Shown here: positions 6,340 through 30,654 of the stretch, in pieces
Layout of the letters: each line of letters opens with the position of its first letter
Position numbering within the stretch: the stretch's first letter is position 1
From: Nitrosotalea sp.
GTDB taxonomy: Archaea > Thermoproteota > Nitrososphaeria > Nitrososphaerales > Nitrosopumilaceae
DNA length: 32,000 nt
Assembly (NCBI GenBank): GCA_050749405.1
Contig: JBOGRD010000006.1
Span: 60,892-92,891 of the forward strand
Direction: 5' to 3'
Notes under the pieces: generated by a model
Told to the model about the DNA's origin: nothing
What the model saw: only the letters and a program-made list of their open reading frames with translations
Database searches by the model: none
Position numbers and translations under genes: made by a program

Positions 6340-7179
6340 CTATCCGTATGACTCGTATTTTATCTCGAAGCTTTTGTCAGGTCTCTTGTTTCTCTCAGTT
6401 ACAAATCCTTTTGGAGTCAACACATCGAGACATCCATCTATGGTTCCTTGCCAACCGCAAATGAAAAACACGGTATTTTCCTCGGTAATTTTTTCTCCTA
6501 CCAGTTTCTCAAGCGTCGACATCTCTCCATTTTTTGATTGCAAGAAAGTCTCAACTCTCCCTTTTTGTCCATTCCAAGTTCTGTTGAACCATTCGTCAGG
6601 TCGACTGATGGTTGATCTATATCTGAAGCTCCACTTGTCTTTGCCACGGTCTAGACTCTCGTCTTCAAGATGAGTCAGTTCCTCTCTGTAACCAAGCTCG
6701 TCAACATAGCTTGCACCGTGCAAAACAACTATCTCTCTTTTGCTTCCAGTATCATGAAGGTGACGTGCATAACTGACAAACGGGGCTAAACCAGTACCTC
6801 CACCTAGACAAACAATTCTTCTGTTGTCTGGTTCACCATTTGGTTTCTTTTCTTCAATGGTAAATGCCCCGGTAGGTTTTATCCAAGTAATTTCATCGCC
6901 TTCTTTTGCGCTAAATAAAACTGTTGTAAGGCGACCAGGAAGCGGTTTTCTGACCCATCTTATGTATAATTCGATGTACTTTCTGTTTTCCGGATTTGAG
7001 GCAATCGAATAAGCTCTTCTTATCACCTTGTTCTCTGATTGTACATGGGTACCTAGAGTTAAAAATTGGCCTGGCTTGTATTGAGGCAGTTCTCCTTCTT
7101 TTGGTTTAAATCTGAAAACTGCTAAATCTTCTTTTTGAATTTGAATGTAGGAGACTATTGCTTTGCTTTCTACTACCAC
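6340..7179 (-). CDS. Ferredoxin-NADP+ reductase-type FAD/NAD(P)-binding oxidoreductase
   Basis: RRAYSIAS (RxYS FAD-binding motif), GGGTGLAPF (NAD(P)-binding glycine motif) and a C-terminal aromatic tail YESYG. Confidence 0.85.
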   Translation of the reverse strand: MVVESKAIVSYIQIQKEDLAVFRFKPKEGELPQYKPGQFLTLGTHVQSENKVIRRAYSIASNPENRKYIELYIRWVRKPLPGRLTTVLFSAKEGDEITWIKPTGAFTIEEKKPNGEPDNRRIVCLGGGTGLAPFVSYARHLHDTGSKREIVVLHGASYVDELGYREELTHLEDESLDRGKDKWSFRYRSTISRPDEWFNRTWNGQKGRVETFLQSKNGEMSTLEKLVGEKITEENTVFFICGWQGTIDGCLDVLTPKGFVTERNKRPDKSFEIKYESYG

Positions 7180-7311
7180 GCGAAGAATTCTATTCTGGAT
7201 AGTTAAATATCTTATGCTATTTTGGTCAAGCTGATTTTCTGGGTCACGCTAAACGTTAATAACCTCACAAAAAAAGTTAATGCAAATCAGATTCATACTC
7301 TGATTAAAATC

Positions 7312-7385
7312 GGGCCGGTCGTCTAGCCTAGTAGGATACGCCCTTGGCATGGGTGAGATCGTGGGTTCAAATCCCACCCGGTCCA
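7312..7385 (+). tRNA. tRNA-Ala (anticodon GGC)
   Basis: Acceptor GGGCCGG/CCGGTCC includes the G3:U70 alanine identity pair. Anticodon arm CGCCC-TTGGCAT-GGGTG, T arm GTGGG-TTCAAAT-CCCAC, discriminator A. Confidence 0.92.
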
Positions 7386-7391
7386 CCTTCT
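7370..7391 (+). repeat. att core copy 1 (3' end of tRNA-Ala plus 6 nt): aatcccacccggtccaccttct
   Basis: Exact 22-bp match to 12371..12392. Imperfect homology continues for about 115 more bp on the right of both copies. Confidence 0.85.
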
Positions 7392-7429
7392 TTGTGATAA
7401 GAGACAGGTCACAGTCCGAGACCATTTTT

Positions 7430-8047
7430 CTACACCACTGCCTTGTCTTTTGGCAAAGTCGCAACAAATCGCCAGCCCTGCGAGATTAGCGTCTCTGCTT
7501 GATCAAGTGCCACAACCATCTGAGTTGGTTGCAAGCTGGATTTGTTTGAGTTTGCTTGTTCTTCTTTTGTTACATTGCTGCTTTGCATCTCAAGATCAAG
7601 CAACTCCTCGCTTCGCCTGAACGCTTGACGCATCTCTTCAATCAATGCATCGGGCAAGAGTCCCTTGTTTGTTGTATACTTGGCTTCCATGCTTCCCTTG
7701 TGACCCATGAAGAAGACGCGAAAGTCATGTGCGATCTTTCCCCTTGATTCCGCCACGAGAAGCTGTGTGTCAAAGTAAGCCCTGAACACATACGGTCTCC
7801 ATGCAAACCTTGGTCGTAGTGCATCACGTATGTCTTGGGTTATCTTGCTTGTTGGAAGAAACTTTTTGCTGCTATTGTTTTCCCGGTATGTCTTGTAGTT
7901 TGTATCAGGCGCTATCAATGGCGAGTCCTGTGTCAAGGTTTCACCTCTTGCGAGTCTGTCGTTGAGGTATGCAAGGATCTTTTGTATCCCATTCCCTGTC
8001 AGGAACGTAAAGTATTGGTGTCTTGCCTTTGAAAGCGTCCTTCTCAC
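7430..8047 (-). pseudogene. Tyrosine recombinase (integrase), catalytic C-terminal part only; N-terminus cut off by the IS insertion
   Basis: RPYVFRAYFDTQL and HDFRVFFMGHKGSMEAKYT fit the R...HxxR...H...Y catalytic pattern. There is no ATG start, and the frame stops being readable exactly at the IS inverted repeat (8048). The stop codon lies 45 bp from the tRNA-Ala 3' end. G+C is visibly higher than in the flanking core. Confidence 0.75.
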
Positions 8048-8935
8048 GGTTGTCTAGAAACCATCCACAATAAACAAGAAATTACACACATTCTATGACA
8101 GTTGTAAGCCAGCACACGATACAGCAACTCCCTTGTCATCATGGTACCATTACGTGCCATGATCTCAGAGCCAAACCTTCGCTTTATCACAGAAAATATC
8201 GTCTCACACTTGTTCCTCTGATGATACAGGGTATCATCAAAGGTACTTCTCATCTGTTTTCTGTACCTGCCTCTTGTGCGGTAAGCCCAGCGGCCTTGAT
8301 ACCTTCTGACAGGAATCATCGATAACATATCGCGGTCCCGGATGGACTGGTGCACCCATTCTGCATCGTATCCTGCATCCAGTACAAACATCCGCGGTCT
8401 TGCAAACGATAACACCCGTTCCAGCATTCTGTGGGAAATATCTTATCTCATGAGATACCGTATTGTGTCGTATCACTACCGCTATGATAAGCTGCGTCTC
8501 CATGTCAGAGCCTGCAGAAAGTTTTGTGTACGAGTGCCTCAGGGAACAGCGGTACGTGTAGTACGAGGCGGCATGGCCGTCCTCAAATCCTGTCGCATCG
8601 ACGCCTGCAAATATTTTTCCAGGAGATACCATTCCGATGAATCTGCCTACTGCCAGATGCAGCATGGTGCTGCTCAGTCTGGATGCCACCTTTTGCAGTG
8701 TGGTATAATGCGGAATCCTTGACAGTCCAAGCATCAATACCAGGTCAGAGGAGACCTCAAGCATCTCAACAAACAACTCGTAGCTTTTTGATTCGTACTG
8801 TCTTAATACCAGCATGATAACATGCTGGTGTAGGGTAAAGATGTGGTTCGACTTTTTGTGAAAATAAAGTGGAACCCGCATCTTTGCTAGAATCTGGCGC
8901 ATTATGGAGATGATGCGCTGGTACTTGTTTTTCAT
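8044..8935 (-). CDS. IS transposase (DDE, YREK signature) split over two overlapping frames (8237..8935 and 8044..8427)
   Basis: The upstream frame carries FAGVDATGFE (first D). The downstream frame carries FVLDAGYDAEW (second D) and YHQRNKCETIFSVIKRRFG, an exact Y-x2-R-x3-E-x6-K signature. The frame switch lies near 8400-8450 and is either a programmed frameshift or an inactivating mutation. Confidence 0.8.
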
Positions 8936-9022
8936 GGGGTGCCAAACGGCACCCTACAAAATGGATCTGACTGTTGATTATGATCTACAATGTTATCAAA
9001 ATTGGATGGTTTCTAGACAGCC
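8048..9022 (-). mobile_element. Insertion sequence (IS4/IS5 superfamily), about 975 bp
   Basis: Terminal inverted repeats ggttgtctagaaaccatcc (8048-8066) and ggatggtttctagacagcc (9004-9022) match 18/19, with 16 perfect. They enclose a DDE transposase. G+C is much higher than the surrounding DNA. Confidence 0.85.
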
Positions 9023-9069
9023 CTAAAGTGATCAATTTTTTATAGAAGATTCGTCTATTATGAAGTCCA

Positions 9070-9363
9070 ATGACAACTGAAATCATGATTAAAAGACATC
9101 TGAAAAAGAAAGAATCTTGCGATGTCTTCGAACCCAGCATGAAAACTTTATCGCGAATCACGAAAGTGTTGTTGGAAAAAAAGTATGTTGGTAAGACAAA
9201 TCTGTCACTTGAAACAAATTTGCATTATGGCAGACTTTCTAGACATCTTGATTGGCTTGAAAAAAAACATCTCATAGAACCTATAATTAGAGACAACAAG
9301 ATCAATCTTGTTTTGACCAGTGATGGGGTCCAGTTTGCCTCAATACTCAGTGATGTAATTTAG
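9070..9363 (+). CDS. Small winged-helix DNA-binding protein (archaeal wHTH regulator-like)
   Basis: 97 aa. TNLSLETNLHYGRLSRHLDWLEKKHLIEP...LVLTSDGVQF has the helix-turn-helix plus beta-wing pattern of small archaeal wHTH proteins. Confidence 0.55.
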   Translation: MTTEIMIKRHLKKKESCDVFEPSMKTLSRITKVLLEKKYVGKTNLSLETNLHYGRLSRHLDWLEKKHLIEPIIRDNKINLVLTSDGVQFASILSDVI

Positions 9364-9372
9364 TAATATGCA

Positions 9373-9408
9373 TTTTACTGACAGGTTTGTCAGTAAAACT
9401 GACAAAAA
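9373..9408. promoter_or_regulatory. Candidate operator: 11-bp perfect inverted repeat ttttactgaca/tgtcagtaaaa (4-nt spacer) followed by a third ACTGACA half-site
   Basis: Seen directly at 9373-9383 and 9388-9398, with a third copy aaactgacaaaa at 9396-9407. It sits between the wHTH gene stop (9363) and the start of the secreted protein gene (9440). Confidence 0.5.
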
Positions 9409-9439
9409 TGTAAGCGCGGTTTATTAGCAATTTCCAAAA

Positions 9440-11209
9440 ATGGAAATAACAATGACAAAAGATAATAACAAAAAACTTTCAAACAAACTTCTTGCAACAG
9501 CAATCGCAGTGGTACTTTGCGGTCTAGCGTATGGCGCATCGCATGCGGCTTATGCTATCACGTGTCCGGCTGGTTCATTTTGCGGAACGCTGTACTACAC
9601 TGACGAATCAAACGTCAAGTCGCTTACATTCCAATATACATCCCCGAATCCTCCTGTTTTTGGACCAGTACAACTCATTTATGGCCCAATCTCACCAGGT
9701 GGTGCTGACGGGTTAACCTTCAATCCTCAGAGCGGAAATCTTCTTGTTGGAGACATTCCTGTTTTGTCTCCAGGTCAAGTAATTTCAGAGGTTGATCCAT
9801 CTGCCATGACGCTGGTCACAACAATTCCAACCGGTGGCGACCCCGCTCACTTGATGGTTGATCCTACAGGCCAAACTCTATTCGGTTCAAACGGTGATCC
9901 AGGAAACCTCATATCGGTGGCATTAAGTCCACTAGGCAGTGGCGTTACGCACCCAATCTCTGGTGACGATGCCAATTTTGGTGTTGACACTGTCCAATGG
10001 TCTGATGCAACACATGCTTTCTACACCTCCGACCACTCAGGTGGGTTTTCGGGTGGAGGTGATGTGGGAACAATTGATATGAACACATTCACTACAACCT
10101 GCTTCAAGACCGCTGGTGTGTGCAACTTTTACCCAGGTGCTCATGGAATGTCCTATGACCCGTTCACTGGTGATCTGATGATCTTCGGCGGAGATCACAT
10201 TACTCAAGTAGACACTTCAGGTAACGTAGTCTCCGACCTTGTAGTCCCAGGTGCACTCTTTGATCAGGGAGCAGTAGACGGACATGGACACTTGCTAGTT
10301 GCAGACCAAGGGCAAGGCGCAATCTTCTTCCTTGATTATTCTGTTGACATGCAGGTCAATGGTCCGCACAAAGTTACAGCCCTAGACTCTGTCGGTGGAA
10401 CTGACGATGTAGCTCCACTCATTGGTCCTGGAACAGACCCGACTACAACTGTAACCACATCCGGCCAAATTGGCAATGATATTCCTGGCACAGCAGTGAC
10501 TGATTCTGCTACGGTGACAGGTTCAGGTACAACACCCCTGCCAGATCTAACAGGTACAGTAAACTTCCAGCTTTGTGGTCCTAATCCAAGTGCGTCAACA
10601 ACTCTAAACTGTGCACCAGCAGGTACAGCCTCAATAACTGTTCCTAATGGAGGTACATTTACAGCTGTTTCACCAGCACAAGCTCCGACAGCAGCTGGTT
10701 CATATTGCTGGACTGCCGCGTTTGTGCCTACTTCAGGCTCTCAATATTCGGGCTCTACCAGTACAACAACTACCAACGAGTGCTTTACCGTATTGTCATC
10801 AACAACGGTAGGTAGCATGACCGGTGGAGGAAGTGTCATCGATCCAACCGTGGGCAAGGTAACGCATGGCTTTGAGCTCCAATGTGATGTCACCAAAAAT
10901 CCTAACAGCCTTGAGGTCAACTGGGGCAAAGGAAACAAATTCCACTTGGATAGCTTGACATCGGCCTTTTGTGTAAATGACACAACGATATCGCCGTATC
11001 CTCCTGCTTCAGGATTTGATACCTATGTAGGTACAGGAACTGGCAGCTACAATGGTGTAGCAGGGGCAACAGCCCAGTGGACATTTACGGATGCTGGCGA
11101 ACCAGGCAAGAACGACCATGCCGCTATAGTCATCAAGGATAGTGGTGGCAGTACTGTATTGTCAGTATCTGGCAATCTCAAGAGCGGAAACCAACAAGCG
11201 CACAATTAA
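9440..11209 (+). CDS. Large secreted/surface protein, unknown function (beta-propeller-like N-terminal part, Thr/Gly-rich linkers, conserved C-terminal beta-rich domain)
   Basis: N-terminal signal-like segment KLLATAIAVVLCGLAYGASHAAYA. Low-complexity T/S/G-rich stretches. C-terminal TFTDAGEPGKNDHAAIVIKD...GNLKSGNQQAHN. G+C is clearly above the local background. Confidence 0.75.
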   Translation: MEITMTKDNNKKLSNKLLATAIAVVLCGLAYGASHAAYAITCPAGSFCGTLYYTDESNVKSLTFQYTSPNPPVFGPVQLIYGPISPGGADGLTFNPQSGNLLVGDIPVLSPGQVISEVDPSAMTLVTTIPTGGDPAHLMVDPTGQTLFGSNGDPGNLISVALSPLGSGVTHPISGDDANFGVDTVQWSDATHAFYTSDHSGGFSGGGDVGTIDMNTFTTTCFKTAGVCNFYPGAHGMSYDPFTGDLMIFGGDHITQVDTSGNVVSDLVVPGALFDQGAVDGHGHLLVADQGQGAIFFLDYSVDMQVNGPHKVTALDSVGGTDDVAPLIGPGTDPTTTVTTSGQIGNDIPGTAVTDSATVTGSGTTPLPDLTGTVNFQLCGPNPSASTTLNCAPAGTASITVPNGGTFTAVSPAQAPTAAGSYCWTAAFVPTSGSQYSGSTSTTTTNECFTVLSSTTVGSMTGGGSVIDPTVGKVTHGFELQCDVTKNPNSLEVNWGKGNKFHLDSLTSAFCVNDTTISPYPPASGFDTYVGTGTGSYNGVAGATAQWTFTDAGEPGKNDHAAIVIKDSGGSTVLSVSGNLKSGNQQAHN

Positions 11210-20671: not shown

Positions 20672-20721
20672 AAATTAAAAAAGCGTCTATGCTATATATA
20701 ACCATTCTATTTCCTAAATTG

Positions 20722-22188
20722 ATGTACAGGTCTAGATTAGACGGAAAGTTAGACGATATCACATTAGAATTTCTTTCATCAATTTCTGATGACTTTGAAA
20801 TTGCCTCGTATGATATTTTGGGAAGTCAGGCTCATACACTGATGCTTTTAGAAAATAAAATTATCAACAAGAAAGATACAATAAAAATTTTAGGCGCACT
20901 TGAGAAGTTAAAAAAAGAAGATATTTCAAAAAAATCTGAAGCCGAAGATATTCATGAACTCATAGAATCTCTGGTTATAAAGAAAGCAGGAAAGGAAGCT
21001 GGAGGAAAGATGCATACGGCAAGATCGAGAAATGACCAAGTGGCACTTGATACTAGAATGAAAATTCGTGATGATATCAATATAGTTTGCTTTTGTCTGA
21101 ATCAAACAATAGAAACTCTCATTGATCTGGCAGAGAAGAACAAACATGTTATAATGCCATTGTACACTCATACACAACAAGCCCAAGTGGGACTGTTTTC
21201 TCACTTTCTTCTTGCATATGTAGATGCGCTCTTCAGGGATCTTGATAGGTTCTATGTGGCATACGGACGAGTTAACGAGTCTCCACTAGGGGCTGGCCCT
21301 GTAGGTGGAACCAGTATCCCTATTGATAGACAATCTACTGCTAAGATGCTTGGCTTTAAAGGCCTGGTGGAAAATTCTATTGATGCAACAACTTCTCGTG
21401 ACTTTGTTGCTGAATATCTTGGAAACGCGGCAATATTGATGACAAACCTGAGCCGAATGGCAGAGGACTTTATTATCTGGTCTACATCCGAGTTTTCTTT
21501 CATTGAGCTCTCTGATAGATTTACTTCGACTTCTAGTGTTATGCCGCAAAAGAAAAATCCAGACGTACTGGAGTTGATTCGCGGAAAGACATCGCAAGTC
21601 ATAGGATACCAGATGGCAGTATTGTCAAATCTCAAGGGATTGCCCTCTGGATACAATAGGGACTTGCAACAAATCAAGGTCTCAATATGGCCAACATCTA
21701 AAATAATAATATCGTCACTCTTGGTTGCAAACTCACTTCTTAAGACAATGAAGGTGAATGAAAAGAAATTGCGTCAAGCAATAGATAGTGGATATTCAAT
21801 ATCTCTTGATATCGCAGAATCTTTGGTAAGAAAAGGGGTTCCTTTCAGGACTGCTCATAAAATTGTCGGCCAACTGGTTCAAATTGCTTCCAATTCAAAA
21901 AAGTCACTTTCTACACTTTCAGCCAATGAGATAAAAAATGCGATCTCAAGTAATGAAATTGATCAAAAGGAATTGTATAAAATAATCCAGTCAACAACAC
22001 CTGAATCTTCACTTGAAACTAGGAAATCACAAGGTTCTGCAGGAAAACACGAACAACAACGCATGATTGCTGACAGGAAACGTAAAGTCCAAGCCTACAT
22101 TACAGGCACCAATAAAAGGACTAATGAGACAAGAGAAGCTATTGAAGTGTTGAATAGCAAAGTATTGTCATTGATAAAAAAAGGTTAA
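20722..22188 (+). CDS. argH: Argininosuccinate lyase
   Basis: HTARSRNDQVALD, GTSIPIDR and the fumarate-lyase signature SSVMPQKKNPDVLE. The ATG at 20722 (MYRSRLDG) is preferred over 20689, which would leave almost no promoter space to the divergent DUF59 gene. Confidence 0.92.
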   Translation: MYRSRLDGKLDDITLEFLSSISDDFEIASYDILGSQAHTLMLLENKIINKKDTIKILGALEKLKKEDISKKSEAEDIHELIESLVIKKAGKEAGGKMHTARSRNDQVALDTRMKIRDDINIVCFCLNQTIETLIDLAEKNKHVIMPLYTHTQQAQVGLFSHFLLAYVDALFRDLDRFYVAYGRVNESPLGAGPVGGTSIPIDRQSTAKMLGFKGLVENSIDATTSRDFVAEYLGNAAILMTNLSRMAEDFIIWSTSEFSFIELSDRFTSTSSVMPQKKNPDVLELIRGKTSQVIGYQMAVLSNLKGLPSGYNRDLQQIKVSIWPTSKIIISSLLVANSLLKTMKVNEKKLRQAIDSGYSISLDIAESLVRKGVPFRTAHKIVGQLVQIASNSKKSLSTLSANEIKNAISSNEIDQKELYKIIQSTTPESSLETRKSQGSAGKHEQQRMIADRKRKVQAYITGTNKRTNETREAIEVLNSKVLSLIKKG

Positions 22189-22267
22189 CATAAGTTACAC
22201 TTTTCTGGATTTAGTTTCCCATATAGTTGGTTATGTACCATGATGAGCGTATTCAATATTCGATTTG

Positions 22268-22618
22268 TTATTTTTTGTCTTTTTGAATGGTTTTTCTATA
22301 TCCTATCTTGGTTCTCTTTTCTTGATTCCCGTGTTCTTTTCTTGTGGTGTCATATCTCTGTTTGTTAGGTAATTTGTCTATGGTCTTACCTAGATTATTA
22401 ATTGCAACAAGCGATAATTCTACCCATGAAGATATCAGTTCAGCATTCACAAACGAAGCTGCAATAGACTTGTAGAATGTTTTCACTAGTGGATCTGACT
22501 CGTGAGTTGATTCCTTTAGAAACGCTTCCTTCATACATTTGCAGTCCCTGCGCAAATCTTTTAGATTTGATAAAGTTTCTTCGTTTATGATTTGATTATG
22601 TGTAGACACCATTCTCAA
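22268..22618 (-). CDS. Small helical protein, unknown function; paralog of 22596..22967
   Basis: Third gene of the RHH-led operon. INNLGKTIDKLPNKQRYD aligns with LNDLSGAIEKLPKGVEFD of the upstream gene. Basic Lys/Arg-rich tail. Confidence 0.55.
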   Translation of the reverse strand: MRMVSTHNQIINEETLSNLKDLRRDCKCMKEAFLKESTHESDPLVKTFYKSIAASFVNAELISSWVELSLVAINNLGKTIDKLPNKQRYDTTRKEHGNQEKRTKIGYRKTIQKDKK

Positions 22619-22967
22619 TCATCCTCTTTTCAAAAGCCCGTGCCTTGTCATAGGCCTCTTTAATGGGTTCCAGTGTTTGCTTTACTCTTTCATTTGTTCT
22701 ATGTAACGCTTCCTTGAGATCATCAAATTCTACACCCTTTGGCAATTTTTCTATGGCACCAGATAAATCATTAAGATCTTGTAAATGACTAACGGTAAGA
22801 TCGTAGTGATAGCCTACAGAATCACAAAGAATGCCTAGTGCATACCATTGTATTTTCATATCGATATCGTTTTCTTCATCACCATACTGACGAAACATAT
22901 CAGAATGCTTACGTACTTTATCTCCTATGAATTTTATATTCTGTCTATATTCTATAGGATAAAACAT
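22596..22967 (-). CDS. Small helical protein, unknown function
   Basis: The start abuts the RHH stop (22968/22967) and the 3' end overlaps the next gene by 23 nt, indicating an operon. No recognisable catalytic motif. Confidence 0.6.
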   Translation of the reverse strand: MFYPIEYRQNIKFIGDKVRKHSDMFRQYGDEENDIDMKIQWYALGILCDSVGYHYDLTVSHLQDLNDLSGAIEKLPKGVEFDDLKEALHRTNERVKQTLEPIKEAYDKARAFEKRMIENGVYT

Positions 22968-23165
22968 CTATTCCTTCTCCCTCAATTCATTTTTGACTCT
23001 TTTTGGGTCTTCATCTTCTAACCATGTCTTTAACGCAATCTCTACTAATTGTGACAAATCAACATCTCTATCTATGGCATCCTTTTTTGCTTCCTTCCAT
23101 ATTGTAGGGTCTATCTTGATTGACGTTGTTTCTCTTTTTACAGTTGGATCCAACCTAATCCTCAT
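22968..23165 (-). CDS. Ribbon-helix-helix (CopG/Arc-like) DNA-binding protein
   Basis: TSIKIDPTIWKEAKKDAIDRDVDLSQLVEIALKTWL has the beta-strand/helix/helix pattern. It is clearly homologous to the 25817..25981 product (TSIKIKPSVWKKAKIEAITENKQLSELVEEALEAWF). Confidence 0.75.
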   Translation of the reverse strand: MRIRLDPTVKRETTSIKIDPTIWKEAKKDAIDRDVDLSQLVEIALKTWLEDEDPKRVKNELREKE

Positions 23166-23272
23166 AGGATCTTTATACTATTAGTATTATTTAAATTTTG
23201 TAGTATAGTTGCATGATGGATGTTTTGCTAAATAAAAGTGCGTAATCTAGTGGAGTCAACAACCAGATCATT

Positions 23273-23536
23273 ATGGGGAATATTAACAGGTGGTTATACT
23301 GTAATTACAAATATTGCAAGATCTTGATTGAACAAAGTTCGTGCATTTCACATCATTACCTACTGAAACAACCAATCGACTGTGTCAAAAATTACGTTTC
23401 AAAGAAAGATGCTCAATGTGGTGGAACTCTGAACTATGTAGTTTACGTTAAGGGAATATGTCGTTCTTATGGAAACAATGTGATGTTGGCTCCAATTGTA
23501 ATCCAATTAGATGAAGATAAGGACCAACCACTGTGA
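23273..23536 (+). CDS. Cys-rich hypothetical protein
   Basis: 87-aa ORF with 7 Cys. No recognisable motif; weak support. Confidence 0.25.
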   Translation: MGNINRWLYCNYKYCKILIEQSSCISHHYLLKQPIDCVKNYVSKKDAQCGGTLNYVVYVKGICRSYGNNVMLAPIVIQLDEDKDQPL

Positions 23537-23549
23537 AACAACCAAAATA

Positions 23550-23632
23550 AACACCCATAGATTAGACAGTACCCAAAAAATGATTTTGTGGGATCTAAGG
23601 GTGTTTTAAATGGGTGTTGAAATCGGGGGTGG
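23550..23632 (-). repeat. AACACCC-iteron element, copy 1 (reverse orientation)
   Basis: The reverse strand reads ccaccc-ccgat-ttcaacaccc-attta-aaacaccc...attttttggg...gggtgtt. GGGTGTT occurs at 23599-23605 and 23612-23618, with AACACCC at 23550-23556 forming a partial inverted partner. Confidence 0.7.
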
Positions 23633-23646
23633 TAACCGTCTGTATT

Positions 23647-24531
23647 CTAATCAGCGGGAATTGCATTTGATGGTAATGGGGTTGTAAGTTCTTTGTATCC
23701 AAGATAGGTCATTTTAAGTTCATCTGATTTAGAAACCAGAAGATAAAATGTTTGATCAGGATTGAATCCCATACAAGGAGTTAATTTAACATCTATTATT
23801 ACAATCCCTTGTTTTTCGAAATACGCTTTTGTTACTCCTCGTTCAGAATAGACCAAAGTAGTGTTAGCATAGGGCTTATCCCAAGGAGCATTACAACCCT
23901 TGGAATCAAATTCAAACCAAACTGGCTGTTCTGGATTGGTTATGTTAAGAGGAACCACTTGTCCTTCTACGTCTTTTTCATCTATTGCTTTGAATCCTAA
24001 TTCCATCATCTTTGATGCATCATTCTGCGGAACAAGAAAATAAAAAGTTAGAAATCCACACATGGAAATAGTGTCCGTCGTTATGCTTCCAGTATTTTTT
24101 ACTTGTAGTAATGTAATGCCATGATTCTTGGAATATTCCGCAATAAGTGTAGTATTATACACACTTTCGAGTAGAGTGCTAGTATCATTCGATCTTACTA
24201 ACTCACCTACCCAAGGTATGATTTTACAATTGTCATGTGACCTGACCGCCTCTGTAAACTCGAACCATGCAGTTTGATTCATCACTATTCCCCACCCACG
24301 TTCAACAAGTTTCTTTGCCGTATCAGGTTTTACACAAGCAGGAGAACCATCTAATGTTTTTATCACAAGCACAAATCCTGCTTTGCATTTTACATCAGAA
24401 GTAGATGTGCCATTTTTTAATTGCTTGAATGGTGAGAGTATTAATGTAGCATTTTGAGCAAATGAGAATGGTATTGTTGAAATTGATGAAAGTAAAATTA
24501 CGATAAAAAGCAAGCCATACCAATAGAACAT
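23647..24531 (-). CDS. Secreted protein, unknown function
   Basis: Signal-like N-terminus LLFIVILLSSISTIPFSFAQ. CKAGFVLVIKTLDGSPACVKPDTAKKLVERGWG is a module I recall seeing in secreted thaumarchaeal proteins (from memory, unverified). Confidence 0.7.
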   Translation of the reverse strand: MFYWYGLLFIVILLSSISTIPFSFAQNATLILSPFKQLKNGTSTSDVKCKAGFVLVIKTLDGSPACVKPDTAKKLVERGWGIVMNQTAWFEFTEAVRSHDNCKIIPWVGELVRSNDTSTLLESVYNTTLIAEYSKNHGITLLQVKNTGSITTDTISMCGFLTFYFLVPQNDASKMMELGFKAIDEKDVEGQVVPLNITNPEQPVWFEFDSKGCNAPWDKPYANTTLVYSERGVTKAYFEKQGIVIIDVKLTPCMGFNPDQTFYLLVSKSDELKMTYLGYKELTTPLPSNAIPAD

Positions 24532-24571
24532 TATTCCTTATAAAACACCAGAACTGAAAAGCTTTTGTATT

Positions 24572-25738
24572 TTATTTTTCTAAAGCAAACTGCAATAAAT
24601 CCATCCACTTTACTTTTTTATCTATTACACCTATTTTCTGTGCAGGCGTCCTATTCTGCAATCCCATGTGCGGTTTCACAAAATTATAATGTATCTTCAT
24701 CCCTTCTGGTATCTGGGTTTCCATTGACTTCCAGCCACGCTGTACCTTAATTCTTTCACGCTGAGTACCATTCATTCTCTCAATTCTGTTGTTGTTTGCA
24801 TGAGTTTTTCGTACTCCTTGTCTTGCCTTGTGCCAAGGCTTGTTATCAAAGACCTTTGGTATTACTGAACCATAGGCTCTCAAAGCATCTGTAGTAATGA
24901 TCTTTGGCTGTAATCCATGTGCATTCTTGATAGCCTCTTGGAATGCTTGAATTGCACCGTTGCCATCCCTCTGCTCTGACAGTTTTGAAGCCAAAAGATA
25001 ACGTGTTTTGAAATCCATGACATTCCAAAGGAAAGCCATGTTTGTCTTTTCCCTAATCTCAATACCATCCTTCATTTTTACAAAGACTTCATCGCAAGCC
25101 CATCTCTTGGACTCGGATTCTGGTATAGCCAAAGAATTTACGTATTGGGATATGATGGGTACATATTTCTTTATCCAGCCATAAACGGTAGTGAAATCAA
25201 GTTCCAGCCCAAAGTGGTCATTTACGCTTCTTGCTACTTTTCGAAGCGAGAGACCAGAGAAATAGAGGTCTAGTGTAAGCGTAATGAGTTTGGGATCGTA
25301 CTTTGACTTCTTTACAAGGCTTGGCTCTCTGAACTTGTGCAGACAGTCCTTGCACTTGAAAATCTGTTTTTCTGCGTTCTTGCCATAACGTATAGTTCTG
25401 ATTGAACCGCATTGATCACATTGAACTGAATCATCTGCAAAGACCTTTGGCTTTTCCTTGTTTTGTAAAAAGGTGTTAGTTGCAATCCAAAACTTCAATG
25501 CATAACCATGCTTGCATGTATCAATTTTCTTTTGGATGGAACACCTGTATGTATAATCAGGACAATCACAAGTAAATTTATTCTCAATTATCTTAACAGT
25601 ATATACGACATCTTTACCCGTCTGAGATGGCACGGTAAAACTGCCGTCCTCGTTCTCACGTATCGCTGAGGTTTCAGTTATTGCCATGCCTCTCATCATT
25701 CGGGTTTCCGATTGGTTGTTTGGTTCTTGTAACACCAT
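24572..25738 (-). CDS. Transposase-like protein: SWIM zinc finger + zinc ribbon + HTH + IS6-type DDE domain (copy 1)
   Basis: SWIM CxCxnCxH motif (FTCDCPDYTYRCSIQKKIDTCKH). Zinc ribbon CDQCGS...CKDCLHKF. DDE triad candidates WACDEVFVKM, IITTDALRAYG and NNNRIERMNGTQRERIK. C-terminal HYNFVKPHMGLQNRTPAQK. Confidence 0.8.
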   Translation of the reverse strand: MVLQEPNNQSETRMMRGMAITETSAIRENEDGSFTVPSQTGKDVVYTVKIIENKFTCDCPDYTYRCSIQKKIDTCKHGYALKFWIATNTFLQNKEKPKVFADDSVQCDQCGSIRTIRYGKNAEKQIFKCKDCLHKFREPSLVKKSKYDPKLITLTLDLYFSGLSLRKVARSVNDHFGLELDFTTVYGWIKKYVPIISQYVNSLAIPESESKRWACDEVFVKMKDGIEIREKTNMAFLWNVMDFKTRYLLASKLSEQRDGNGAIQAFQEAIKNAHGLQPKIITTDALRAYGSVIPKVFDNKPWHKARQGVRKTHANNNRIERMNGTQRERIKVQRGWKSMETQIPEGMKIHYNFVKPHMGLQNRTPAQKIGVIDKKVKWMDLLQFALEK

Positions 25739-25816
25739 ACCACTAGTGTTATACTATGCACTATTTAACTCTATACCAAACAGGTTATATACCACAGGTG
25801 GTATTTTGTAATTGTA

Positions 25817-25981
25817 ATGAAAGCAACAACAGAAGAATTGAGAGAATCTACTTCAATCAAAATTAAACCAAGTGTTTGGAAAAAAGCAAAGATAGAGGCT
25901 ATCACTGAAAATAAACAACTATCAGAACTTGTAGAAGAAGCACTAGAGGCATGGTTTGATTCAAAGAGGAAGAATAAGTGA
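25817..25981 (+). CDS. Ribbon-helix-helix DNA-binding protein (54 aa; below the ORF-track size cutoff)
   Basis: Hand translation: MKATTEELRESTSIKIKPSVWKKAKIEAITENKQLSELVEEALEAWFDSKRKNK*. Homolog of 22968..23165. Its start lies 78 bp from the divergent transposase-like gene. Confidence 0.7.
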   Translation: MKATTEELRESTSIKIKPSVWKKAKIEAITENKQLSELVEEALEAWFDSKRKNK

Positions 25982-26558
25982 CTTGGTTAGACTAAAACCC
26001 CTTATAGAAATAGGTTCTGTAATAAGTTCAATCGCTATTTTGTTCTCCATGATGACCGTCATACAGTTTTTTCCTGCAATTCCTTTGGAAAAAGCACTTA
26101 TTTTCTCTGTTTCAATAATTCCACTCGTACCTTATGTTATCTCTGGTAAAATTGAAACTTCCATCCAAAAACTGCGTTTACGCCTGAAAAAACCGAATGA
26201 GCGTGAAATATTAGAATCACGGTTATCAGAGCAGAAACAGGAATTATTACAGAAATTAGATGTTGTTACAAAAGAACTAGAAATGATCCAGTCAGAAGAC
26301 GCTCAAATGGCAAGACTTGCTTATAAAGTTGTCAATGAAGGAAGTTCAAAATTTGCTACCAAAGAGGAAATCAAGGAACTAGCTACTAAAAAGGACATAA
26401 AGGAATTGGCAGGAATGATTTATGATCTTGATAAAAAGACGAAAAACAAGCAGGAATCCGCCACCCAAAATTCAACACCCGAAGAAAACACCCGTAATAA
26501 TCAACAGAACAATTTTTTGGGTTTTGTTGATTCAAGGGGTGTTCTAAAAGGGTGTTGA
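25956..26558 (+). CDS. Membrane-anchored coiled-coil protein, unknown function
   Basis: TTG start overlapping the RHH gene. Two N-terminal TM helices, then heptad-like charged repeats (ATKEEIKELATKKDIKELAGMI). The 3' end overlaps AACACCC element copy 2. Confidence 0.55.
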   Translation: MIQRGRISDLVRLKPLIEIGSVISSIAILFSMMTVIQFFPAIPLEKALIFSVSIIPLVPYVISGKIETSIQKLRLRLKKPNEREILESRLSEQKQELLQKLDVVTKELEMIQSEDAQMARLAYKVVNEGSSKFATKEEIKELATKKDIKELAGMIYDLDKKTKNKQESATQNSTPEENTRNNQQNNFLGFVDSRGVLKGC

Positions 26559-26570
26559 AAAACGGGTGTT
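26461..26570 (+). repeat. AACACCC-iteron element, copy 2: complete imperfect palindrome
   Basis: AACACCC at 26474-26480 and 26487-26493. GGGTGTT at 26537-26543, 26550-26556 and 26564-26570. Arms ttcaacaccc...aacaccc...aatcaaca mirror each other around aattttttgg (about 26511-26520). Confidence 0.8.
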
Positions 26571-26659
26571 GTGTTGACGGCAGAACTACCAAAAGTTTGG
26601 TAGTTTGTTTAAAAACTCAACAAACCCATTCTTAAGGAAAGAAAAGCAGTTTTATTAAG

Positions 26660-26794
26660 ATGAAGCGTATAAATAGACTAGGGAAAGAGGGTGGAGAGGA
26701 AATGACAAAAGAAAGACAAGAAATCTTAGATAAAGTAGTAGATAAACTGTTAAAGGAAAACAAGGTTATATTCGAAAGACTTGACGAAATTTAG
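26660..26794 (+). CDS. Putative antitoxin (44 aa) for the downstream Doc toxin
   Basis: Hand translation: MKRINRLGKEGGEEMTKERQEILDKVVDKLLKENKVIFERLDEI*. Its stop codon directly abuts the doc ATG (TAGATG). Confidence 0.5.
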   Translation: MKRINRLGKEGGEEMTKERQEILDKVVDKLLKENKVIFERLDEI

Positions 26795-27418
26795 ATGGTA
26801 AAACTATCGTCAGATGAGATTATCAGCATTCATGATAAAATTACTGACAGATTTAAAATCACAAAAGGAGTGATCAATAAGAGTATTTTGGACGCAATAG
26901 TTGAACGACCAGAATTACAATTAGAAGATCATAACTATGTTTATGACAGTGTGTTTTCAAAAGCGGCTGCTATCCTAGAGGGAATAATTCGCTGGCATCC
27001 TTTTGCAGATGGAAATAAACGAACTGCATTAGCTACATCCGTATATTATTTAAAATTAGAAGGATATGCTATCGCATTACCCTTAAGTGCAGTTCGTTTT
27101 ACCGTCAATATTGCAAATAACGATAAAACTGATAGTATAAGCACTCAAAAACTAATCGAAGAAATTACAACTTGGTTTAGAGCACATTCTGACCGCAATA
27201 AACTCTTGTTACTCGGAAAGTTGGGACTCTACATTGGCATTCCATACAGATTTTATCAATTTCTAATCAAACTTGGTTTTCTAAATTATGTCTACAAGAA
27301 AGTTGCTTATTGGATGGCTTTTGATATATACCCAGAATATGCAAAAGAAATGAGTGAAATAGCTAAATTCATTCAAGAAACAGTAGATACTAGTTTGACT
27401 GCGGTTTTTGGGAAATAA
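26795..27418 (+). CDS. doc: Fic/Doc-family protein (death-on-curing toxin-like) with an ~80-aa C-terminal extension
   Basis: HPFADGNKRTA at 26996-27028 matches the Doc variant of the Fic motif (HxFx[DE]GNKRxA). Residues after about 125 (LLLLGKLGLYIGIPYRFYQFLIKLGFLNYVY...) are hydrophobic/aromatic and lie beyond the length I recall for canonical Doc (about 125 aa). Confidence 0.8.
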   Translation: MVKLSSDEIISIHDKITDRFKITKGVINKSILDAIVERPELQLEDHNYVYDSVFSKAAAILEGIIRWHPFADGNKRTALATSVYYLKLEGYAIALPLSAVRFTVNIANNDKTDSISTQKLIEEITTWFRAHSDRNKLLLLGKLGLYIGIPYRFYQFLIKLGFLNYVYKKVAYWMAFDIYPEYAKEMSEIAKFIQETVDTSLTAVFGK

Positions 27419-27420
27419 TT

Positions 27421-28581
27421 TCAAACTTCAATAGAATTTCTCGTAGCAAGTTCTAACAAATCCATCCATTTGACTTTCCTTTTGATAACTCCGATCTTCT
27501 GAGCAGGTGTCCTATTCTGTAACCCCATATGTGGTTTTACAAAGTTATAATGAATCTTCATCCCTTCTGGAATTGGAGTTTCCATTGACTTCCAGCCTCT
27601 TTGTACCTTAATTCTCTCTCGTTGAGTACCATTCATTCTTTCAATCCTATTGTTATTTGCATGAGTCTTTCTTACTCCTTGTCGTGCCTTGTGCCAAGGC
27701 TTGTTATCAAAGACCTTTGGTATTACTGAACCATAGGCTCTCAAAGCATCTGTAGTAATGATTTTTGGCTGTAGACCATGAGCATTCTTAATTGCTTCTT
27801 GAAATGCCTGAATTGCACCGTTGCCATCCCTCTGCTCTGACAGTTTTGAAGCCAAAAGATAGCGTGTCTTGAAATCCATGACATTCCAAAGAAAAGCCAT
27901 GTTTGTCTTATCCCTAATCTCAATTCCATCTTTCATTTTTACAAAGACCTCATCGCAAGCCCATCTCTTGGATTCCGATTCTGGTATAGCCAAAGAGTTT
28001 ACGTATTGGGATATGATAGGCACGTACTTCTTTATCCAGCCATAAACGGTAGTGAAATCAAGTTCTAGCCCAAAGTGGTCATTTACGCTTCTTGCTACCT
28101 TTCGAAGCGAAAGACCAGAGAAATAGAGATCAAGTGTAAGTGTAATAAGTTTAGGATCATACTTTGACTTTTTGACAAGGCTTGGCTCTCTGAATTTGTG
28201 CATACAGTCCTTGCACTTGAAAACCTGCTTTTCTGCGTTCTTGCCATAGCGTATGGTTCTGATTGAACCGCATTGATCACACTGGACTGAATCATCTGCA
28301 AAGACCTTTGGCTTTTCCTTGTTTTGCAAAAATGTATTAGTTGCAATCCAAAATTTCAAGGCGTAACCATGTTTACAAGTTTCAACTTTTCTATATGTAA
28401 AATCGGGACAGTTACAGACAAATTTATTTTCGATTATCTTAACGGTATATGCGACATCTTTACCCGTCTGAGATGGCACAGCAAAACTGCCGTCCTCATT
28501 CTCTCGTATTGTTGAGGTTTCAGTTATTGCCATGCCTTTCATCATTCGGGTTTCCGATTGGTTTGTTTCTTTGTTGAACAT
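27421..28581 (-). CDS. Transposase-like protein: SWIM zinc finger + zinc ribbon + HTH + IS6-type DDE domain (copy 2)
   Basis: Near-identical protein to 24572..25738 (about 4 substitutions over the ~300-aa core). The SWIM loop is shorter (FVCNCPDFTYRKVETCKH). The ATG at 28581 (MFNKETNQSETRMM) aligns with the copy 1 start; the track start at 28635 adds an implausible extension. Confidence 0.8.
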   Translation of the reverse strand: MFNKETNQSETRMMKGMAITETSTIRENEDGSFAVPSQTGKDVAYTVKIIENKFVCNCPDFTYRKVETCKHGYALKFWIATNTFLQNKEKPKVFADDSVQCDQCGSIRTIRYGKNAEKQVFKCKDCMHKFREPSLVKKSKYDPKLITLTLDLYFSGLSLRKVARSVNDHFGLELDFTTVYGWIKKYVPIISQYVNSLAIPESESKRWACDEVFVKMKDGIEIRDKTNMAFLWNVMDFKTRYLLASKLSEQRDGNGAIQAFQEAIKNAHGLQPKIITTDALRAYGSVIPKVFDNKPWHKARQGVRKTHANNNRIERMNGTQRERIKVQRGWKSMETPIPEGMKIHYNFVKPHMGLQNRTPAQKIGVIKRKVKWMDLLELATRNSIEV

Positions 28582-28685
28582 GTTTCCCACATACACACAT
28601 ACACACAATATTATAAAAACATTGTGGATAACCACATATTACATATAACCACAATTCTTATATTAATGGTAAATCTAATGTAATT

Positions 28686-28844
28686 ATGGGTAGAATAGAT
28701 GCAATAATTCCTGACGAATTAGAAAAGAAATTACGGATGAAGGCAGTAGAAAGATTCGGTGGAAAGAAAGGCAGTCTAACAGAAGCGTTAGAAGAAGCGA
28801 TTGAGAGATGGGTAAAAGAACAAAAGGAATTGAGCAAGAAATGA
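28686..28844 (+). CDS. Ribbon-helix-helix (CopG-like) protein (52 aa; below the ORF-track cutoff)
   Basis: Hand translation: MGRIDAIIPDELEKKLRMKAVERFGGKKGSLTEALEEAIERWVKEQKELSKK*. Its start lies 104 bp from the divergent transposase-like gene. Confidence 0.7.
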   Translation: MGRIDAIIPDELEKKLRMKAVERFGGKKGSLTEALEEAIERWVKEQKELSKK

Positions 28845-29254
28845 GAAAATATGACAATGAATTTAAAACAGACAAAAAAGTCATAGATAAAGAGGAAATT
28901 ATTCGAAATTTCATTCATGGATTATTACATGGTGAAATTAAAGTTGACCTAACTTTGAGAGATGGAACACGAAACCGAAATACGTTCTATGATAATCTTG
29001 AGCAATTTATCTTAGATTATTTGGATGAAGATAAACCTGAACAAGAAAAAAAGACCATTGCTAAGAATTTATTCAAATTGATAACAACTATGAGAGTAGT
29101 GGATAGAATAACTACCAAAACTGAGACAAGTTCTCAAGAAATTCAGTCCATTAATGAAAGAATAGGCAATATGGATGCAAGATTGAACTCTACTAATAAA
29201 CTACTTGATGAGATTACAAAAATGTTCCCAAAGGGGAATGATCCTGAACCCTGA
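28841..29254 (+). CDS. Small helical/coiled-coil protein, unknown function
   Basis: ATGA overlap with the RHH stop; ATG at 28841 rather than the track start at 28808. C-terminal IQSINERIGNMDARLNSTNKLLDEITKMFPKG is paralogous to the next gene. Confidence 0.6.
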   Translation: MRKYDNEFKTDKKVIDKEEIIRNFIHGLLHGEIKVDLTLRDGTRNRNTFYDNLEQFILDYLDEDKPEQEKKTIAKNLFKLITTMRVVDRITTKTETSSQEIQSINERIGNMDARLNSTNKLLDEITKMFPKGNDPEP

Positions 29255-29256
29255 AT

Positions 29257-29676
29257 ATGACTGAAATATCTGAAAAACCTTCAGAACTTTTCACTCGTGA
29301 ATTTAGACATGAAGTAGTCAATAAATTCATCAAGGAAGTTGCAGAAGGTGCAATTCGAATTATTACTCCTATGAAGTTTGACGATTATGAATATAGAAAG
29401 ATACTTTCTAATTTCTATAGCAAATTTACTAGTAGTGTAGAAGATTATCTTTCAGAGAAAATAAAGGGGGATACGCTGGTAAATTTAGAAGCAGTCATCT
29501 TTGCTGACATTATAACATTACGCACTGCTGGGTTAATTGAAGAGGATAAGTATTCTATACCAGAAGTAAAACAGAAAGTATCCAGTCTAGAAGCAAAGAT
29601 AGAATCAACTAATAACCTTCTATCTGATGTCTTATCAATTCTAATGGAGTTATTGAGACGACTTGACAAGAAGTAA
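29257..29676 (+). CDS. Small helical/coiled-coil protein, paralog of 28841..29254
   Basis: Starts 2 nt after the previous stop. VKQKVSSLEAKIESTNNLLSDVLSILMELL aligns with the C-terminal heptad region of the preceding gene (shared STN-LL core). Confidence 0.6.
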   Translation: MTEISEKPSELFTREFRHEVVNKFIKEVAEGAIRIITPMKFDDYEYRKILSNFYSKFTSSVEDYLSEKIKGDTLVNLEAVIFADIITLRTAGLIEEDKYSIPEVKQKVSSLEAKIESTNNLLSDVLSILMELLRRLDKK

Positions 29677-29968
29677 AGTATTATGCCCTTTCTGCAATAT
29701 TCGGATGTATGAGGTTATTGATGAGGAATATCCTAGGCTACGAACTTATCTATGCTATGAATGTGGATTTCATGCAGATACAATTTTGATGGAACAAAAG
29801 AGCATGTATCTGCATTATCAGGAGTTATTTGCTCATTTTAAGGATGTATTAAAGCCAAAGAAACTACTACCACCCAAATTTCAACACCCAGATAAAACAC
29901 CCGAAGACTCAACAGAACACAAAAAATTGATAAAGCCAAGTTTAACTGAAATTTTTTGCAAACTATGA
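29663..29968 (+). CDS. Zinc-ribbon protein, unknown function
   Basis: TTG start overlapping the previous gene by 14 nt. CPFCNIRM...CYECGF four-Cys ribbon. The 3' part overlaps AACACCC element copy 3. Confidence 0.5.
   Translation: MTRSKVLCPFCNIRMYEVIDEEYPRLRTYLCYECGFHADTILMEQKSMYLHYQELFAHFKDVLKPKKLLPPKFQHPDKTPEDSTEHKKLIKPSLTEIFCKL
29870..29925 (+). repeat. AACACCC-iteron element, copy 3 (left arm only)
   Basis: ccacccaaatttcaacacccagataaaacacccgaagactcaacagaaca, against copy 2 ccacccaaaattcaacacccgaagaaaacacccgtaataatcaacagaaca. No GGGTGTT arm follows. Confidence 0.75.
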
Positions 29969-30064
29969 CACATAAAGACGTGATTTTAATGTAGCATTCT
30001 TGACTTTTTCATTGATTTTACTTCACATGGCTATAGATAAAAAATTCCTGCAACGAGTACAAGT

Positions 30065-30274: not shown

Positions 30275-30374
30275 TTAGAATTCCCTTCTTTTTAGAGGGA
30301 GTTTGCAGTGAGAACTATTGGCAAAATTTACAATTTTGGGATTAGTGTTGATTTTCAATCAAATTGTGAAAAGG

Positions 30375-30448
30375 CGGGTTCGCGGGGATTCGGACCCCGG
30401 ACAGCCGGATTAAAAGTCCGGTACTCTACCTGGCTGAGCTACGAACCC
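30375..30448 (-). tRNA. tRNA-Lys (anticodon UUU)
   Basis: Reverse complement: GGGTTCG-TA-GCTC-AGCCAGGTA-GAGT-A-CCGGA-CTTTTAA-TCCGG-CTGTC-CGGGG-TCCGAAT-CCCCG-CGAACCC-G. All stems pair perfectly. The T loop reads TCCGAAT (C at position 55). Confidence 0.85.
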
Positions 30449-30545: not shown

Positions 30546-30654
30546 GCCCTTGTAGTATAGAGAGGATGTGGGGTAAAATCCAATCCTTGTATAGCCCGGT
30601 CTAGAATGGGGCCCTGTCACGGCCTCGACGCGAGTTCAAATCCCGCCAAGGGCG
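30546..30654 (+). tRNA. tRNA-Asp (anticodon GUC) candidate with a ~34-nt non-canonical intron in the D-arm region
   Basis: Acceptor GCCCTTG (30546-52) pairs with CAAGGGC (30647-53). Anticodon arm GGGCC-CTGTCAC-GGCCT. T arm GCGAG-TTCAAAT-CCCGC (one A-C mismatch). A canonical D loop AGCCCGGTCTA appears only if about 34 nt (roughly 30556-30594; the junction is ambiguous because TATAG is repeated) are removed. Confidence 0.55.

Follow-up and report, generated by a model that had tools for sequence, protein, structure and literature searches.

The subject of this study is a repeated block of AACACCC motifs in a 32-kb stretch of Nitrosotalea DNA (the window, at its full length). Each copy of this block, hereafter an arm, is very probably a terminal inverted repeat that bounds a transposon; the transposase is distantly related to those of the IS6 family and extended at its N-terminus. 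On comparative grounds, the element is a cargo-carrying IS6-like transposon of ammonia-oxidising archaea with terminal inverted repeats of about 50 bp. We call the element IS6-like because its tip, the length of its target duplication, and its catalytic domain agree. Units in the window are designated U0, U1, and U2, and loci from other genomes and metagenomes are numbered L0xx.

When 17 distinct arms, taken from the window and from genomes and metagenomes, are read inward from the tip, their consensus is GGTTCTGTTGAATCnTCGGGTGTTTTAAATGGGTGTTGAAAAnTGGGTG. Its tip, GGTTCTGTTGA, is identical to bases 1–10 of the published consensus for IS6/IS26 terminal repeats, GGTTCTGTTGCAAA (PMC6807381); over the longer start GGTTCTGTTGAATC, identity covers positions 1–10 of 14, the matching portion being GGTTCTGTTG, and the caaa part is replaced by AATC. 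The GG start and the cTGTt motif by which IS6 ends have been described (PMC7986276) are present, as is G at position 7. In the same direction, the end can be written GGTTCTGTTGAATCnTC-GGGTGTTTTAAAT-GGGTGTTGAAAAnT-GGGTG: an IS6-type tip comes first, and behind it are three GGGTG(T/A)T subterminal repeats, which start at positions 18, 31, and 44. These repeats resemble the tip (TGTTGA), and their 13-bp phase persists at other loci where the repeat sequence drifts to ATCACCC or ACAACC.

IS6 elements make 8-bp target duplications (PMC7986276). Nine related units in Nitrososphaeria genomes and metagenomes are flanked by 8-bp direct repeats of local sequence (Table 1), and in the window the U1–U2 block lies between two identical copies of CAAAAAAT, starting exactly 8 bp from the tip of U0. 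These repeats show, as far as flanking DNA can, that insertion of the elements involves a staggered cut of 8 bp, which gives rise to the 8-bp duplications. The flanks of the units often resemble CAAAAWT, and other copies occupy unrelated sites beside aconitase, Spt5/NusG, and V-ATPase genes.

Each complete unit contains one transposase open reading frame (ORF) of 388–404 amino acids (aa) with an IS1/IS1595-type zinc ribbon and a DDE domain. The latter is recognised as an IS6 catalytic domain by Pfam PF13610 (DDE_Tnp_IS240) at 53.5 bits, against a cutoff of 27, and the zinc domain by NF050000 at 33.7 bits; the N-terminus has about 140 extra residues with two zinc modules. Homologs of the transposase fall into 731 clusters, some of which are named IS6 family transposase by NCBI. 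All eight homologs that were looked up are bounded by inverted ends in which a GGTTCTGT-like tip is accompanied by phased repeats. The association of the arms with a zinc-finger DDE gene, proposed in the first-pass annotation of this DNA, thus holds both in the window and in other genomes. The SWIM label given there to the transposase does not, since it corresponds to a weak, non-significant pattern match (Pfam SWIM, E = 0.5).

Arms and units in the window

The block CCACCC-n4-TTCAACACCC-n5-AAACACCC-...-TCAACAGAAC had been reported at three places, and it is indeed found at 26461–26511 (+), 29870–29919 (+), and 23633–23582 (−). As a total, three is too low: there are five arms. The motif AACACCC occurs 12 times in the window, compared with 2.6 expected, a count reached by none of 100 shuffles. 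A 23-nt core pattern with at most three mismatches has 5 matches, compared with 0.03 expected, and an arm-derived profile (nhmmer) finds four strong copies and one weak one. The five arms make up two mirror pairs (sites A and B), in which they face each other tip to tip, and one single arm (site C). The mirror arm described for copy 2 is real (26520–26570, with GGGTGTT at 26537, 26550, and 26564), and so is the partial one described for copy 1, which is degenerate (23523–23573, 68–71% identity); copy 3 has none, as had been stated. The view that conservation acts on DNA rather than on protein is also borne out. The conserved blocks are runs of 7–11 consecutive nucleotides separated by variable linkers of 4–6 nt without a 3-nt periodicity, and the reading frames differ among the copies, the ORFs that overlap copies 2 and 3 ending in the tails ATQNSTPEENTRNNQQNN and PPKFQHPDKTPEDSTEHK, respectively.

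The pairing of the arms has to be revised. Copies 2 and 3 had been taken for direct repeats 3.4 kb apart that flank a module; instead, the units are bounded by inverted arms, 23582–23633 (−) pairing with 26461–26511 (+) and 26520–26570 (−) with 29870–29919 (+). This gives two complete units, U1 (23582–26511) and U2 (26520–29919), next to the decayed U0, which ends at 23573. The palindromes of 90–110 bp at 23523–23633 (site A) and 26461–26570 (site B) are both two ends from different units abutting across an 8-bp target; the second consists of the right end of U1, an 8-bp spacer, and the left end of U2. The terminal (A)TTTTTTGG, previously counted as part of the block, is the 8-bp target-site spacer together with the first G's of the neighbouring element.

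Table 1. Positions of the arms, spacers, and genes of the three units in the window, and 8-bp duplications of related units
Feature	Position	Strand	Remarks
U0, decayed resident element	22198–23573		RHH gene, p123, p116; no transposase; left boundary tentative
U0 RHH gene	22968–23165	−	tblastn homolog
U0 right terminal inverted repeat, degenerate	23523–23573	+	repeat search; nhmmer E = 0.036; 83% identity to L026 right arm
Weak arm-profile match	23542–23577	+	nhmmer E = 0.036
Strong arm-profile matches	23635–23571; 26457–26523; 26569–26509; 29867–29930	−; +; −; +	arm profile
8-bp spacer CAAAAAAT, left target-duplication copy of U1–U2 block	23574–23581		identical to 29920–29927
U1 left terminal inverted repeat, transposase side	23582–23633	−	tip GATTTTGTGGG, then GGGTGTT, GGGTGTTGAA, GGGGGTGG; nhmmer E = 9e-14
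p294, passenger	23647–24531	−	predicted secreted; no family match; homologs in L028, L015
U1 transposase	24572–25738	−	388 aa; SWIM-like CxC..CxH pattern, IS1/IS1595-type Zn ribbon, helix-turn-helix, DDE
RHH1, small RHH-like gene of U1	25817–25981	+	divergent from transposase gene; weak RHH matches; 54–67% identical to RHH of U0 and L027
p200 ORF	25956–26558	+	last codons cross U1 right end and spacer into U2 left end
U1 right terminal inverted repeat (copy 2)	26461–26511	+	nhmmer E = 1e-12
8-bp spacer ATTTTTTG	26512–26519		exact reverse complement of outer CAAAAAAT copies
U2 left terminal inverted repeat (mirror of copy 2)	26520–26570	−	nhmmer E = 2.5e-11
30-aa ORF before Doc/Fic gene	26702–26794	+	ends one base before Doc start
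Doc/Fic passenger gene, U2	26795–27418	+	PF02661 at 49 bits
U2 transposase	27421–28635	−	~90–93% identical to U1 transposase; probable start ATG at 28581
RHH2, p148, p139, p101 operon, U2	28686–29968	+	reads into right end
U2 right terminal inverted repeat (copy 3)	29870–29919	+	nhmmer E = 3e-14
8-bp CAAAAAAT, right target-duplication copy	29920–29927		conserved chromosomal flank from 29928
Unit in L010			8-bp duplication CATTTTTG
Unit in L027			8-bp duplication CAAATTAC
Unit in L028			8-bp duplication TAATTTTT
Unit in L029			8-bp duplication CGTTTCAG; tip end ambiguous by one base
Unit in L026			8-bp duplication CTAAAATA; tip end ambiguous by one base
Unit in L048			8-bp duplication AAGACAGC
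Unit in L049			8-bp duplication TTGGCGTT
Unit in L053			8-bp duplication CCCCCCTC
Unit in L050			8-bp duplication GACATGAG

The stack lies in the chromosome between argH (20689–22188) on the left and tRNA-Lys (30373–30448) on the right; beyond the latter, ARAGORN reports a tRNA-Asp of 70 nt at 30584–30653, for which the Rfam tRNA model stays below the gathering score. The right tip of U0, TAGACAGTACC, is orthologous to TAGACAATACC, the right tip of a single element present at the same argH/tRNA-Lys site in L026, and a left-arm remnant after the argH stop codon aligns weakly to the left arm of L026. The 11-nt tip alone, with 3 mismatches, could not place the left end of U0, giving 99 matches in the window compared with 98 expected.

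The cargo differs by unit: U1 carries a secreted 294-aa protein, and U2 carries Doc/Fic and three small proteins. Among the accessory proteins, Pfam gave nothing significant beyond weak ribbon-helix-helix (RHH) matches and one MazE match, and PADLOC gave only Doc-like matches among the passenger genes. Beyond its Fic domain (residues 4–86), the Doc/Fic protein (207 aa) continues in a hydrophobic C-terminal extension of about 110 aa; the protein and the preceding 30-aa ORF may form an unusual toxin–antitoxin passenger. Secreted passengers of the p294 type, with the motif DGSPAC.K....A.KL..RGWG, are located on the transposase side of the units in the window (23647–24531), L028 (7157–7831), and L015 (328–576). 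On the RHH side, the last ORF often enters the arm in the same frame, with tails such as QHPDKTPEDSTE (window 29663–29968, L028:4939–5175, L027:5047–5337, L010:3774–3965); p200 of U1 enters it in another frame.

Within the transposase gene of U1, a 23-nt stretch (24774–24796) that encodes the conserved NNNRIE motif and contains the tip-like CAACAGAA has 91% complementarity to the beginning of RHH1 (25825–25847). The equivalent stretch of U2 (27635–27661) is 78% complementary to part of the Doc gene (27112–27138). These complementarities could be either antisense pairing or chance.

Related loci and the proposed history of the stack

A scan of one genome per species with an 18-base core pattern gave 23 matches. 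Nine of these are in Nitrososphaeria (Nitrosotalea, Nitrososphaeraceae, and Nitrosopolaris), and all nine have the extended arm, with a transposase homolog or fragment within the fetched flank at five. The 14 non-thaumarchaeal matches have neither the tip nor the third repeat and are attributed to chance, as are two matches on viral contigs, which have no tip and a bacterial-looking context. A scan of metagenomes with an arm plus tip pattern yielded 15 loci, all of them true arms, mostly on short contigs. The inverted ends of the relatives are mostly 50–57 nt long; shorter repeats were detected in L049 (40 nt) and L050 (31 nt).

Two kinds of deviating loci were observed. At L018 (2060–4441), the arms enclose a response-regulator receiver gene and a small Cys-rich ORF; since both arms are present and there is no transposase, this unit is a non-autonomous, cargo-only derivative. 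Arms lacking the innermost repeat were found at L004, L019, L033, L035, L037, and L038 (Nitrososphaeraceae and Nitrosopolaris). The sequence immediately inward of the arm is the same in all six; one flank beyond the tip is common to L033, L035, and L038, and a different one is common to L019 and L037. These arms look like fixed solitary ends inherited vertically.

On the + strand, the stack in the window reads (U0 ...TAGACAGTACC)–CAAAAAAT–(GATTTTGTGGG... U1 ...TCAACAGAACA)–ATTTTTTG–(GGTTTTGTTGA... U2 ...TCAACAGAACA)–CAAAAAAT–TGATAAAGCC..., and the flank that begins at 29928 is common to the Nitrosotalea loci L011 and L015 (93–95% identity) and to L026. In L026, the flanks of which are about 75% identical to those of the window at the nucleotide level, there is a single U0-type element whose right tip, orthologous to that of U0, is directly followed by 8 bp and the shared flank. 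L026 can therefore be read as the state before insertion of U1–U2, that is, as the unoccupied site. In L015 (186–1008), only about 760 bp lie between argH and the flank in place of the 7.7-kb stack; they comprise a C-terminal remnant of the transposase, a p294-like fragment, and one transposase-side arm beside CAAAAAAT, oriented opposite to the flank-adjacent unit of the window. L011 has the orientation of the window and other cargo. Because L015 and L011 differ from the window in content or orientation, the argH/tRNA-Lys site is polymorphic among close relatives and rearranges on a short evolutionary scale.

The window and L028 each have two junctions of the form tip–8 bp–tip, and L048 has one, so that they are present at 3 of about 11 loci with complete units. 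In L028 (4083–4112, 4968–4975, and 7972–7979), TAATTTTT occurs four times in direct orientation, and its copies separate a 14-bp relic, a truncated unit, and a unit that is intact; the relic, seen in TAATTTTT-GGTTCAACAGTACC-TAATTTTT, consists of element tips only. This arrangement looks like three successive hits on one 8-bp target. In L048 (9604–9640), the unit at 6851–9611 abuts, across AAGACAGC, a solitary tip GGTTCTGTTCCG with no element behind it, immediately before a V-ATPase gene. Both relative orientations of stacked units occur, which argues against simple tandem duplication. As the origin of U1–U2 in particular, a tandem dimer was rejected, since U1 and U2 differ in cargo, identity between their transposase genes is only about 90%, and the junction at site A joins opposite orientations. 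Taken together, the recurring junctions suggest that insertion may be aimed beside a resident end.

Simple insertions, one after another, would leave three copies of the 8-mer in direct order, and direct copies are what is seen in L028. In the window, the spacer in the middle matches the reverse complement of the two outer copies exactly, and for this reason it is best explained by a later inversion of the U1–U2 composite. Two insertions into the same 8 bp would have come first, and the composite would then have been inverted, whether through recombination of its outermost inverted arms with each other or through re-insertion the other way round; both routes would flip only the internal spacer and reverse both unit bodies. 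The opposite orientation in L015 fits the state before this inversion. Chance is an unlikely source of an exact 8/8 reverse complement, although the preference for CAAAAWT-like targets keeps it conceivable.

Proposed end recognition and alternative explanations

In the mechanism we propose, the transposase, and not the variable RHH/AbrB protein, would bind the tip and the three repeats. We favour it as the binder because the repeats resemble the tip and the extra zinc modules could account for the extra sites, and because the neighbouring small DNA-binding gene varies while the repeats are unchanged: it is of the RHH type in the window, L027, and L028, MazE/AbrB in L026 (36 bits), and PrlF-like in L010. 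A multi-subunit complex would assemble on each end, and the transposase would recognise a resident tip in the target DNA and cut in the abutting 8 bp, so that new copies would be captured beside the resident end and the same 8-mer duplicated each time. There are documented precedents: IS26 prefers a resident copy, and IS911 and IS30 insert at inverted repeats (PMC7986276). IS6/IS26 elements transpose through cointegrates (copy-in) and by a targeted conservative reaction; in the present elements, the one hint that an end in the target may be recognised is the stacking beside resident ends. It is possible, although somewhat short of probable, that these elements form a distinct IS6-derived group of archaeal transposons with multi-site ends read by the extra zinc-finger modules and with dedicated end-homing. 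Even a dead relic or a 14-bp tip remnant would then direct copies into the abutting 8 bp, so that fixed spots would accumulate stacks of cargo units.

The first-pass annotation had listed several candidate roles for the repeats, of which only that of sites for the DDE protein at a transposon end is retained. One rival explanation makes the AACACCC repeats operators or iterons of the RHH protein, serving autoregulation, partition, or a plasmid-type origin, rather than transposase sites. An RHH gene is indeed present in every unit of the window, and RHH operators and iterons typically consist of phased direct repeats; yet the repeats stay unchanged where the small gene switches to the MazE/AbrB type in L026 or the PrlF-like type in L010. 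The repeats are also located at the element tips, 0.4–1.3 kb from the RHH promoter region, they always accompany the IS6-type tip and the 8-bp duplications, and no replication-initiator gene (Rep or Orc) was found. We therefore consider this role very improbable, although RHH may still have an accessory role at the ends. It is extremely improbable that the arms are arm-type or core attachment (att) sites of integrative elements, integrated in tandem beside tRNA-Lys by a site-specific recombinase, with the palindromes as attL/attR hybrids. The stack does lie about 450 bp from the tRNA-Lys 3' end, four related genomes are occupied at this chromosomal site, and tandem integration, too, would place a site at every junction. 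However, no ORF of the region 22200–29970 contains a tyrosine or serine recombinase domain, and instead of an identical core at all junctions, each locus has its own 8-mer beside the unit, directly duplicated from the target sequence at that place. The tip equals an IS6 terminal repeat, other copies sit at unrelated sites, and the tRNA scan places tRNA-Lys nearby and not at the insertion point, insertion being outside the tRNA gene.

A third rival makes the palindrome itself the functional unit, as a bidirectional terminator, a structured 3' RNA, or a cruciform. The hairpin potential noticed for copy 2 is real, since site B can form a DNA hairpin with a folding energy of −26.9 kcal/mol (z = −4.5); moreover, the arms are located at the 3' ends of genes, and there is a T run at the centre. 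Against this, the arm is normally solitary beside unrelated flanks, as for copy 3, all 15 metagenome arms, and most genome arms, and among about 30 further arms in other loci, mirrored tip-to-tip arrangements occur only in L028 and L048. The T run is the target 8-mer and lies outside the element, and each palindrome joins arms of two units that differ in cargo. Rfam covariance models reached the gathering score in the window only for tRNAs, with no RNA family in the arm region. That the palindrome is the functional unit is barely conceivable.

Several observations weigh against the assignment to an IS6-like transposon. The best NCBIfam model for the transposase, NF033587 (IS6 family transposase), gives 105.6 and 104.8 bits, below its cutoff of 125. 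IS6 elements in ISfinder are compact, at about 0.7–0.9 kb with one gene and ends of 14–20 bp, and members of the zinc-finger IS6 clades reach about 1.3 kb, whereas the units described here measure 2.1–3.5 kb and have 3–7 ORFs and ends of 50–57 nt. Harmer and Hall considered that archaeal IS6-like elements may not belong in the family (PMC6807381). The left end of U0 is weakly recognisable, through its alignment to L026 only, several arms at other loci have no detectable partner arm, and among the 15 metagenome arms, none is at a tip-to-tip junction and few have a partner. Taken singly, U1 and U2 both lack a direct duplication, and the inverted middle spacer requires the additional step of a presumed inversion. 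Finally, the evidence is wholly comparative: transposition itself is read from sequence, and the transposase is the putative binder of the three repeats.

What had been an unexplained iteron palindrome can thus be described as a mobile element whose boundaries are exactly defined. Its kind, an IS6-like transposon, is known, and the variant, with long multi-repeat ends, passenger genes, and end-adjacent stacking, is undescribed. We found no description of this architecture in the literature searched on IS6 and on Thaumarchaeota mobile elements; the main text of the Thaumarchaeota mobilome paper gives IS families and does not describe it. The boundaries should aid the annotation of Nitrososphaeria genomes, where such proteins are usually labelled only "transposase-like", and they indicate that IS6-like elements can have long multi-repeat ends and passengers such as a Doc toxin, secreted proteins, and a response regulator. 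Tip–8 bp–tip stacking occurs in three independent genomes; if target choice is indeed directed by ends, this would be a natural system for a transposase that uses its own end as a target signal, a question that is open for IS26 and relevant to the spread of antibiotic resistance. If the end-homing group is real, it would represent a transposon-built gene-capture site in ammonia-oxidising archaea.

Comparison with known systems

Mutator-like elements and IS256 resemble the present units in the weak SWIM-like CxC..CxH pattern, the long inverted ends, and duplications of 8–9 bp; they differ in that the SWIM match here has E = 0.5 and the IS256 model scores 35.6 bits on the transposase, compared with 105.6 bits for the IS6 model. 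The ends of Mu and Tn7 contain, besides the cleaved tip, several phased transposase-binding repeats. This likeness in multi-site ends is the basis, by analogy, of the mode of working predicted for the ends described here. The present elements are not members of that group: they have a single transposase gene of a different DDE clade and much shorter ends, with no MuB, TnsC, or other ATPase partner.

IS30 and IS911 belong to other transposase families, transpose by copy-out-paste-in, and leave spacers of 2–3 bp, whereas here the spacer is the 8-bp duplication, the units occur in both relative orientations, and the ends lie head to head. They are similar in inserting beside or into their own inverted repeats (PMC7986276), as in (IS30)2 tandems, with a resident end as the target and abutting ends separated by a short fixed spacer.

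The closest systems are IS6/IS26, especially the long members bearing an N-terminal zinc finger and ISDsp3, which share the IS240/IS6 DDE domain, the tip GGTTCTGTTG, the 8-bp duplication, and a tendency to act beside a resident copy. ISDsp3 is the only IS6 member noted to have a passenger gene (PMC7986276), whereas the units described here have, besides passengers that vary, a small DNA-binding gene in divergent orientation and one to three helical proteins. They differ further in the three 13-bp-phased repeats of their longer ends, in the score of the transposase below the NCBIfam equivalog cutoff, in their size, and in their host, since Nitrososphaeria are not listed in the IS6 reviews (PMC7986276, PMC6807381). 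Finally, IS26 arrays consist of direct copies and form without new duplications, whereas the units in Nitrososphaeria are stacked tip to tip and keep the 8-bp target.

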